From the NCBI GenBank assembly GCA_030295235.1, contig AP026145.1:558001-622000 (forward strand): DNA of 64,000 nt. The letters run 5' to 3'. Below the pieces are notes generated by a model. That model made no database searches, had not been told where the DNA came from, and saw only the letters and a list, made by a program, of their open reading frames with translations. Positions 30,278-31,950 of the stretch are shown here, piece by piece. The position numbers and the translations under genes were made by a program. The first letter of the stretch is position 1, and each line of letters starts with the position of its first letter. Origin of the DNA: Fistulifera solaris (Eukaryota).

Positions 30278-31950
30278 TTACTGGATCACATCCACAAGAA
30301 AGTCAAAGATATCAGTCTTTTGAATAGCTTCTTTAACATCTTCTTTTTGTAAAGTGCGTCTCTTGTGCAACTGGCTGTATTCTGCAGGCACAAATGGAGA
30401 GCTAATTAGACAACAACGGTTCCATCCCAGAAACAAATAGCCTGTCTATCTCAACTTACCAAACGCACGAATGGATAAATCCAAAATGAAAAGCTCGCAA
30501 GCTTTCGCAAAGAGGACCGGAGCCTCTGCCGATATCATGCGCACATCCTCGTCACTCTTCATGATGCGCTTGATTCTAGCCAACGGCAAGTCATTATGGT
30601 TTTTGAAATCTTGTTCACTTTGATTCTCCAATGCCTGTATAGAAGCATACGAATCACACCAGAACTGCTGCAGCCGCTCCTGCAACTGCTGCAGAAATTG
30701 GGGCGAATTCGCTGCCGGTGGAGGCTCCGACATATCAAAGTCGTCGTTGTGGTCCCCTTCCAGCATCGGATCCGATTCTTCCGCCACACTCGGTTTCACC
30801 GGCGGTGCCTTCCGGGCCGGGGGCTCTGCTTTGACGGCTGATTCTTTCGTTGGCGCCGCATCACCCTTGTATATCCCTGATTGGATCTGCGCGGTTGTAT
30901 GAGCATGGATTAACGCTTGACACTTAGTTTAAAAACCGGAGCGACATGGAGATTAGATTACGGAGTATTATTTTTGGCAAACAGACTGGTTAGCCCCAAC
31001 GACGATTGAAAATTTGTGGCAATACCAGGTACTGCCCTTTGTCGAAGGAGTCGCAACAGCACAGACTTACCTGTAACTGAATTTGCGTGGAGATCTGGGC
31101 CGGTGTTAGATTCGCAGTAGCTGCTTTTCTTGCATTCACAATGGCTTGAGCTTGAATTTGTGACAAGGTGGCGATTTGCTGGGCATTCATCGGAACTAGA
31201 CCGTCCCCCCTAGCTTTAGCCGCTGCGACTACTGCTTGCGCTTGAGCAGCTGCTTGAACCTCGAAGAACAAGACGTTTAGTTGAAAAATTTGGCAAACAA
31301 TGATGTGCTATAGCGACCGAAACACTGGAAAAACTTACCATCGCCTTAGTTTGCGACAAGGCAATTAAAAGGAAAGCAACCGGAGCGACATTTCAAAAGC
31401 AAAGGACAGCAGAAGACGTTTAGTTCAATTTGGCAAACAATGATGTGCTATAGCGACCGAAATACTGGAAAAACTTACCTGGGCCTTAGTTTGCAACACG
31501 GAGAATACAAAGAAAGCAACCGGGGCGACATGGCGAAAGCAAAGGATAGCAAAAGACGTTGAGTTCAATTTGTGGGGCAAACAATGATGTTGTACTATAT
31601 AGCGTCAACCGAAACACTAGGTCACAGCAGAAGAAACTTACCTGTAACTGAATTTGTTCTGGCGTTATGTTGGCTTTTTGTCCTGAAAGAAGAAGCATAA
31701 GATACATTTGATTGGAGAATCAAGAAAGCCTAAAACTTCATCAAAAGGAGATCTTACCGCGTTCCGCAGCCGCTTGAAGCTGTGCCTGCAGCTGTTGTTG
31801 CAGCTGCTGTTGGATCTGCTTCTGCAATTGCTGTTGTGTAGATGTCGATGTGGTCGTTGTGGTAGATGTCGGTGCAGGTTTCTTTTTATTGGGATTGTTG
31901 TCTTCATTTGTATCCGCAGCGGGACGCTTTCCTCCGCCGTCTTTGTCCAT
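30278..31950 (-). CDS. NF-YC: Nuclear factor Y subunit C (HAP5) with Gln/Ala-rich multi-exon N-terminus
   Basis: DFKNHNDLPLARIKRIMKSDEDVRMISAEAPVLFAKACELFILDL and last exon KRRTLQKEDVKEAIQKTDIFDFLVDVIQ*; several GT-AG introns; indel near 30820. Confidence 0.92.
31260..31641. repeat. Tandem ~140-160-bp intronic repeats in NF-YC, each with a minus-strand GTAAGT donor
   Basis: AGACGTT(T/G)AGTT..GGCAAACAATGATGT..TATAGCG..CCGAAA.ACT..AAACTTACC occurs three times. Confidence 0.85.

Follow-up and report, generated by a model that had tools for sequence, protein, structure and literature searches.

The window analysed here is a 64-kb stretch of the Fistulifera solaris genome (contig AP026145.1, positions 558,001 to 622,000). 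Its minus strand carries a gene of the NF-YC type, in which two consecutive exons of only 6 nucleotides (nt) each are set apart by introns that resemble one another. Translation of exon 4 matched the CBF/NF-Y histone fold of Pfam (PF00808, E-value = 8.5e-12, 45.6 bits with a cut-off of 21.4), and a protein search with the same exon led to 483 matches, the best of which are diatom proteins bearing the JGI name 'nuclear transcription factor Y gamma'. Judged by these best matches, the gene is assigned to diatom NF-YC, as its nearest relatives are NF-YC proteins and not NF-YB, NC2 or Dpb3/4. Additionally, exon 3 presents an identity of 58/63 residues with the orthologous protein P0001 and of 57/63 with P0121, a public model from a relative. 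The exons and introns are listed in Table 1.

Both hexamers are flanked by canonical splice signals. On the minus strand the DNA reads ...AAACTAAG-GCCCAG-GTAAGT at 31484-31479 and ...AAACTAAG-GCGATG-GTAAGT at 31344-31339, with a spacing of 140 nt, and the immediate surroundings (CTAAG-GCCCAG-GTAAGT and CTAAG-GCGATG-GTAAGT) provide the acceptor and the donor expected of a micro-exon. An earlier interpretation made from the letters alone (hereafter the sequence-only reading) had proposed two candidate micro-exons with an acceptor in front, GTAAGT behind and 140 nt between them, and all of these elements are found exactly where it had placed them. It had also proposed that exon 2, both hexamers and exon 3 join in frame (QIQLQ-AQ-AM-VQAAAQAQ) and that intron 3 (31070-30923) ends in the same AAACTAAG and leads into exon 4. 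These proposals hold as well, as reading through the introns hits stop codons and a contig of run X2 (described below) shows the joint 30922/31071. Tandem Repeats Finder described 31270-31590 as an array with a period of 140, 2.2 copies, 85% matches and a score of 446, while a second repeat search reported two 140-nt copies with 87% identity. The period is 140 nt because intron copies of ~134 nt stand 6 nt apart.

Concerning the use of the hexamers in RNA, assembled contigs from four (X1-X4) of five matching sequencing runs were aligned to the window. Runs X2 and X3 behave as RNA, with no cover over introns or flanks and with joints at GT..AG borders (30381/30460, 30922/31071 and 31681/31757 for X2; 31681/31757 for X3). 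Specifically, X2 record 11 (345 nt) and X3 record 14 (340 nt) contain exons 1 and 2 joined without intron 1, at 0 mismatches. Beyond exon 2 they carry 11 and 9 letters, respectively, which the alignment left unplaced before 31641 (CATCGCCTGGG and TCGCCTGGG on the plus strand). Together with the C at 31641, these letters give CATCGC-CTGGGC on the plus strand, that is, GCCCAG-GCGATG after CAGTTACAG on the coding strand, and this 12-mer junction is contiguous nowhere in the 64-kb window. The junction that the sequence-only reading had predicted, CAGTTACAG-GCCCAG-GCGATG-GTTCAAGCA, is thus present in the X2 and X3 contigs as far as GCGATG. Both hexamers are used as genuine exons in spliced RNA, and usage of the donors at 31641 and 31478 and of the acceptors at 31485 and 31345 is seen in the transcript contigs. 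On the downstream side of micro-exon 2, where none of the X2 and X3 contigs extends over 31190-31338, removal of intron 2c is predicted from the reading frame and from colinearity with the orthologues.

An assembly artefact, either in the repeat array or in the transcript junction, was considered as another source of this pattern. Repeats of 140 nt are prone to mis-assembly, and the X1 contigs do break inside the repeat. Nevertheless, X1 records 2, 4 and 5 tile 30458-31896 unspliced with 0 mismatches and overlap across both hexamers, although X1 is possibly the source sample of the window and its agreement is then not independent. Apart from this, TTACAG, which is specific to this copy, and both hexamers all fall within the terminal 31-mer of the X2 contig. 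The junction must therefore lie within single reads and cannot be a graph chimera with the second copy, and an artefact appears hardly conceivable to us.

Table 1. Layout of the NF-YC gene in the window, with the evidence for each feature.
Feature	Position	Strand	Description
NF-YC gene	31950 (ATG) to 30278	minus	Five-plus-two exons, predicted product of 333 residues
Exon 1, coding part	31758..31950	minus	193 nt, phase 1 end; from sequence and translation
Intron 1	31683..31757	minus	75 nt, GT..AG; removed in X2 and X3 contigs (joint 31681->31757)
Exon 2	31642..31682	minus	41 nt, ...ANITPEQIQLQ; from sequence, translation and transcript contigs
Intron 2a	31485..31641	minus	157 nt, GTAAGTTT...AAACTAAG; site B (after first codon pair); spliced out in X2 and X3
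Micro-exon 1	31479..31484	minus	GCCCAG = Ala-Gln; between AG and GT; in X2 and X3 contigs
Intron 2b	31345..31478	minus	134 nt, GTAAGTTT...AAACTAAG; site C; spliced out in X2 and X3
Micro-exon 2	31339..31344	minus	GCGATG = Ala-Met; 6/6 nt in X2 contig, first 4 in X3
Intron 2c	31260..31338	minus	79 nt; site D; 5' 69 nt of the unit plus GTTCTTCGAG; predicted removal
Exon 3	31071..31259	minus	189 nt, VQAAAQAQAVV...QISTQIQLQ; from sequence and translation
Intron 3	30923..31070	minus	148 nt, GTAAGT...AAACTAAG; joint 30922/31071 in X2 record 10
Exon 4	30460..30922	minus	463 nt; variable linker and first part of the histone fold
Intron 4	30382..30459	minus	78 nt, within the histone fold; joint 30381/30460 in X2 record 8
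Exon 5, coding part	30278..30381	minus	TAA at 30280-30278; reads ...YSQLHKRRTLQKEDVKEAIQKTDIFDFLVDVIQ, same in orthologues
Conserved intron core ATGTCGCTCCGGTT	31378..31391	minus	Further copies at 31518-31531 (1 mismatch) and 30934-30947

The residues encoded by the hexamers are conserved. All 8 orthologous proteins that cover the region among those retrieved with the exon 4 search (P0001, P0002, P0004, P0007 and P0012-P0015; alignment A2) read ITPEQIQAQA(Q/S/A)AMVQAAAQAQAVV, and the string M-V-Q-A-A-A-Q-A-Q-A-V-V, which includes the Met of AM, is invariant in 9/9 aligned orthologues. With both hexamers in place, the window gene reads ITPEQIQLQAQAMVQAAAQAQAVV (ITPEQIQLQ-AQ-AM-VQAAAQAQAVV), equal to the orthologues in length and in codon-pair count over this part and departing from them by a single Ala-to-Leu change. 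Since AQ and AM are kept in the orthologues and the number of codon pairs is unchanged, the hexamers are old coding sequence rather than products of a duplication. They are best described, on this alignment, as ancestral and constrained codon pairs (Ala-Gln and Ala-Met) that newer introns have split. The sequence-only reading had held that tandem duplication of an intron made the micro-exons and had pointed to orthologous genes for comparison. Its first half stands, as the flanking introns are indeed copies of one another; its second half falls, because AQ-AM occurs in the orthologues too (8/8) and duplication did not create the hexamers.

The same conservation bears on whether the hexamers are regulated cassette exons, the skipping of which would shorten the Gln/Ala-rich region by 2 or 4 residues and thereby tune it. 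Every combination of skipped hexamers remains in frame, and several pairings are conceivable between the three near-identical donors and the two identical acceptors. However, the residues in question are conserved across diatom orthologues, and since the hexamers are constrained, leaving them out would delete conserved residues, so that regulated skipping seems improbable. A direct 31642-31259 join is absent from the contigs of X1-X4, but contigs drop rare forms and this absence is uninformative on skipping.

In order to compare the introns, local alignment scores of intron pairs were set against 300 shuffles. The pair 2a-2b scored z 42 (0/300 shuffles) with 119/134 aligned positions identical, the pair 2b-2c scored z 43 (0/300) with 2 substitutions in 66 aligned positions, and the pair 2a-2c scored z 13 (0/300). 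Intron 3 presents lower but still elevated scores against 2a (z 5.6, 0/300), 2b (z 4.8, 0/300) and 2c (z 2.8, 5/300), and its resemblance to 2a lies in the first ~21 nt, in a block in the middle and in the core CCATGTCGCYCCGGTT plus the terminal AAACTAAG. Introns 2a, 2b, 2c and 3 are paralogues, as judged by these alignments. Intron 4 showed no similarity to any other intron of the gene in the same comparison, and intron 1 is unrelated to 2b, 2c and 3 (z -0.5 to -0.8), except for a weak score against 2a (z 2.4, 10/300). Intron 2c is a partial copy, made of the first 69 nt of the unit and ten other letters, and the 3' half of the unit is missing from it. The last 10 nt of 2c (GTTCTTCGAG, 31260-31269) and the first 10 of exon 3 (GTTCAAGCAG, 31250-31259) are alike at 6/10 positions; this likeness may go back to a short direct repeat left by an insertion, or to chance.

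These figures also weigh on the explanation that tandem duplication of an intron plus 6 exonic nt created the hexamers as new in-frame coding sequence (the AGGT-duplication route). The head-to-tail array described above, with splice sites inside the repeat and an own donor and acceptor on each unit, is what such a route would leave behind. Yet each duplication of intron and 6 nt would add a codon pair, and the count equals that of the orthologues. Between the hexamers 3/6 positions are different, against a divergence of 3-11% between the introns (P = 0.02 at the rate of 2a-2b and 5e-4 at that of 2b-2c), and GCGATG would need to have mutated into exactly the ancestral Ala-Met. Divergence is uneven along the unit, where this route would leave it uniform. 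The 5' halves carry 2/66 substitutions in every pair and the 3' halves of 2a and 2b carry 13/68 (Fisher p = 0.005), and the third copy is without the 3' half of the unit altogether. We consider creation of the hexamers by tandem duplication very unlikely. One or two tandem duplications of a single intron were also worked through on paper and set aside, as they required either extra codon pairs or mutation of GCCCAG to GCGATG.

Concerning the source of intron 2a, a 36-nt repeat (D4) with 86% identity links 31621-31656 with 31050-31085. It comprises the last 15 exonic nt of exons 2 and 3, which are identical, together with the donor. At the protein level, an internal repeat (TPEQIQ--Q-AQAM-V against TPQQIQTQIQLQ-AQAL-V) scored 57, a value reached by 1/500 shuffles, and introns 2a and 3 sit at equivalent points of its two copies. 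The 15 identical exonic nt and the equivalent position in the repeat suggest that 2a probably derives from intron 3 by recombination or conversion at the DNA level.

A further explanation is that the four introns are an Introner-like mobile element hopping locally, and that this gene is one of many hit in the genome. The four related copies bring splice signals and all lie in phase 0 at (C)AG-G-like or TG-G sites, a core of 14-16 nt is kept in three of them, and Introner families have been reported in many protists, including aquatic ones (Gozashti et al. 2022, PMC9860276; PMC12130899). Within the 64-kb window, however, no copy was found outside the NF-YC gene. The 14-mer ATGTCGCTCCGGTT, searched with up to 2 mismatches, gave 3 matches (30934, 31378 and 31518), all of them in this gene (0.45 expected by chance; 3 reached in 2/100 shuffles), and blastn of the introns returned elsewhere in the window only matches of 15-23 nt with E-values of at least 0.01. 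No target-site duplication was apparent by eye, and the GTAAGTTT/AAACTAAG ends form an imperfect inverted pair, no formal scan having been made. None of the introns folds more stably than its own shuffles (z +1.3, +2.2, +2.3 and -0.5), and the 15 nt of flanking exon carried by 2a are not expected of a transposon. An Introner-like origin is accordingly unlikely in our judgement. Rfam gave one match far below threshold (E = 0.9), and this result, together with the lack of a stable fold, does not support an RNA gene or structured element in the introns.

The core CCATGTCGCYCCGGTT of 14-16 nt is retained in introns 3, 2b and 2a despite divergence of the remaining intron 3, and it may be a cis element promoting copying or splicing. 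In a ~95%-identical relative represented in X4, the segment 30934-30987, core copy included, is swapped for 10 other letters (joint 30933->30988).

Intron positions in other diatoms were studied through a profile scan of metagenome contigs, which gave 80 NF-YC loci, all from distant diatoms, 48 of them covering the hexamer region. In 33/48 loci ITPEQIQAQAQAM is uninterrupted, and 10 of these 33 are on contigs of at least 5 kb. An intron directly before AQAQAM (site A) occurs in 14/48 loci, with the DNA inspected for 10 of the 14, and an intron directly before AM (site C) in 1/48. The sites after the first AQ (site B) and after AM (site D) carry an intron in 0/48 loci, and the intron-3 site in 0/51 loci in which the ALVHAHT motif is present. 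In the window gene, site A is uninterrupted and introns occupy B, C and D. This short NF-YC stretch is a hot spot of shifting intron positions among diatoms. The introns of the metagenome diatom loci showed no similarity to those of the window (blastn-short matches of only 12-15 nt), and an exact 21-mer across the border of exon 2 and intron 2a was not found in the JGI metagenome contigs.

The loci with an intron at site A are L007, L013-L017, L019-L023, L027, L036 and L050, among which L007 and L027 appear to use GC donors. L048, which holds the intron at site C, is the only other locus with an intron inside AQ-AQ-AM. Inspected by eye (L048:2700-2960), this intron consists largely of ~5 head-to-tail copies of a ~35-nt unit, and thus represents a second, independent repeat-built intron at the spot. 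Finally, L045 has an intron before ANITPEQ.

Public models and near relatives add to this comparison. The first residue of P0121, which matches exon 4 of the window gene at 144/153 residues (94%), is the Met of AM; VQAAAQ follows directly, and this unbroken M-V-Q shows that intron 2c is absent in that relative. Both P0121 and P0122 start at this Met and continue into intron 4 (ending GKL...). For the window's own gene, the protein collection contains only P0188, an open reading frame (ORF) fragment of 66 residues; a protein search with the ORF running through intron 2c, exon 3 and intron 3 returned only P0188 and distant proteins. The start and run-on of P0121 and the fragment P0188 are in line with gene callers missing the hexamers, although they are no direct test of it. 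Among the X4 contigs, record 18 shows that a ~95%-identical relative has intron 3, and record 20 shows an unchanged border of exon 2 and intron 2a in a ~92%-identical relative. The organism also transcribes a second, ~87%-identical copy of the gene, as seen in X3 record 15 (31757-31839), the letters of which after exon 1 translate to GQQASITPEQI and match P0001.

Our overall reading, which we hold with considerable confidence, is that ancestral codon pairs were isolated as 6-nt exons by inserted copies of one intron family. Within an ancestral ...PEQIQ-AQ-AQ-AM-VQAAAQ... three new phase-0 introns would have entered at three successive codon-pair boundaries. We infer that intron 3 is the oldest copy and the source of 2a, which would have been copied with 15 nt of upstream exon by ectopic recombination or gene conversion between the repeats. 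The exon flank arriving with 2a would have introduced the native Leu of the second repeat at a position that is otherwise always Ala. Intron 2b and then 2c would have been placed one codon pair further each time, with no exon letters duplicated, and candidate routes for these two are repair-templated insertion, reverse splicing or a mobile intron. Since 2c is partial and 2a carries an exon footprint, repair-type copying at the DNA level is favoured over reverse splicing or transposition.

In present splicing, each intron would be recognised separately (intron definition) through a perfect donor (CAG or ATG, then GTAAGTTT), with 2a and 2b bringing their own AAACTAAG acceptor. As two spliceosomes would not fit on a 6-nt exon simultaneously, splicing probably takes out the introns one after another. 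Once mature, the mRNA would restore the ancestral protein, and the hexamers would be constitutive coding exons. A bolder extension is that the intron is spreading copies of itself within its gene, from one codon boundary to the next, in three generations (old, ~11% and ~3% diverged). We regard this as rather doubtful, though worth entertaining; if true, the locus would be a natural and still active system for intron gain by duplication of existing introns.

Several points weigh against the isolation of ancestral codon pairs by intron copies as set out here. The RNA support is drawn from assembled contigs belonging to two runs of the same study, the RNA kind of which was only guessed by a tool, and the X2 and X3 contigs stop at micro-exon 2, so that the join of GCGATG to exon 3 is deduced and not seen. 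Most of the 33 metagenome loci that read through are short contigs and may be transcripts, and the 80 loci include no close relative, the best being ~55% identical in exon 4. X4 record 20 bridges 31502 to 31260 (31261-31501 skipped) with the letters between not reported, and X1 record 3, from the ~87%-identical second copy, is 291 nt shorter over 30458-31896 with its content between likewise unreported. The 291-nt deficit is the exact sum of introns 2a and 2b, and both records hint at fewer introns there, from which no conclusion is drawn. Gene conversion among the copies could have obscured the order of events. Finally, the partial 2c fits neither reverse splicing nor simple transposition.

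Micro-exons of 1-15 nt in plants and animals are described as encoding conserved residues and as often missed or mis-annotated, and adjacent micro-exons of 5 and 12 nt have been validated in a rice transcript (Yu et al. 2022, PMC8831610). The hexamers of the window gene resemble the cases of the cited account in being tiny internal exons with canonical GT-AG introns and conserved residues. They differ from them in that two consecutive 6-nt exons are found in a diatom, are lineage-specific and recent, and are flanked by introns that are mutual copies. Among the matches listed by a literature search, there was no diatom micro-exon case of this kind and none on intron gain in diatom NF-Y genes.

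Intron gain by tandem genomic duplication has been documented (Hellsten et al. 2011, PMC3265369; Ma et al. 2016, PMC4974935; Lehmann et al. 2010, PMC2891723). The present case shares with it the local duplication of DNA with splice signals and the head-to-tail repeats. In the model as presented in these sources an exon is duplicated and one copy turns into an intron, whereas here a pre-existing intron was apparently copied and no exon letters were duplicated by it. The coexistence of introns less than 32 nt apart within a gene has been judged very improbable (Lehmann et al. 2010, PMC2891723). The orthologue introns do lie within 18 nt of each other, as in near intron pairs or intron sliding (site A in 14 loci, C in 1, and B, C and D here); unlike the near intron pairs treated there, three introns coexist 6 nt apart in the window gene, and at least the first two are spliced. 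With Introners the present introns have in common that they form a family of similar introns bringing their own splice signals. They differ in that the copies are within one gene only (as far as the 64-kb window extends), show no terminal repeats or target duplications by eye, and carried flanking exon. In Oikopleura, an intron has been proposed to spread by reverse splicing to other sites close by in its gene. The window gene is comparable in having similar introns close together in one gene and between intact codons, but 2c is partial and 2a has an exon flank, both of which fit a DNA-level route better.

A review describes duplication of pre-existing introns as negligible in many lineages and the mechanisms of gain as largely unknown, and recent gains with a traceable source are few and their mechanisms disputed (PMC3488318). 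Against this background, the locus would bring together in one gene the source of the copies, a copy at an intermediate stage and a partial one that is very young, with an exon-flank footprint that points to DNA-level recombination. What is new is that the consecutive 6-nt exons arose from insertion of intron copies into conserved codons and not from exon duplication. As the organism holds a diverged second copy of the gene and relatives lack some of the introns, these are usable as natural controls. The coexistence of three introns 6 nt apart and the splicing of two consecutive 6-nt exons by a diatom also bear on the lower limit of exon size under intron definition. They are relevant for annotation too, with the public models around the hexamer region being truncated or unspliced.

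A minor observation concerns the start of exon 4. Its first 12 codons (30887-30922, minus strand) include CQALIHAHTT, where P0121 and most orthologues have AQALVHAHTQ. Three changes thus fall within those 12 residues, although exon 4 is otherwise 94% identical to P0121, and P0009 shares the I and the T.

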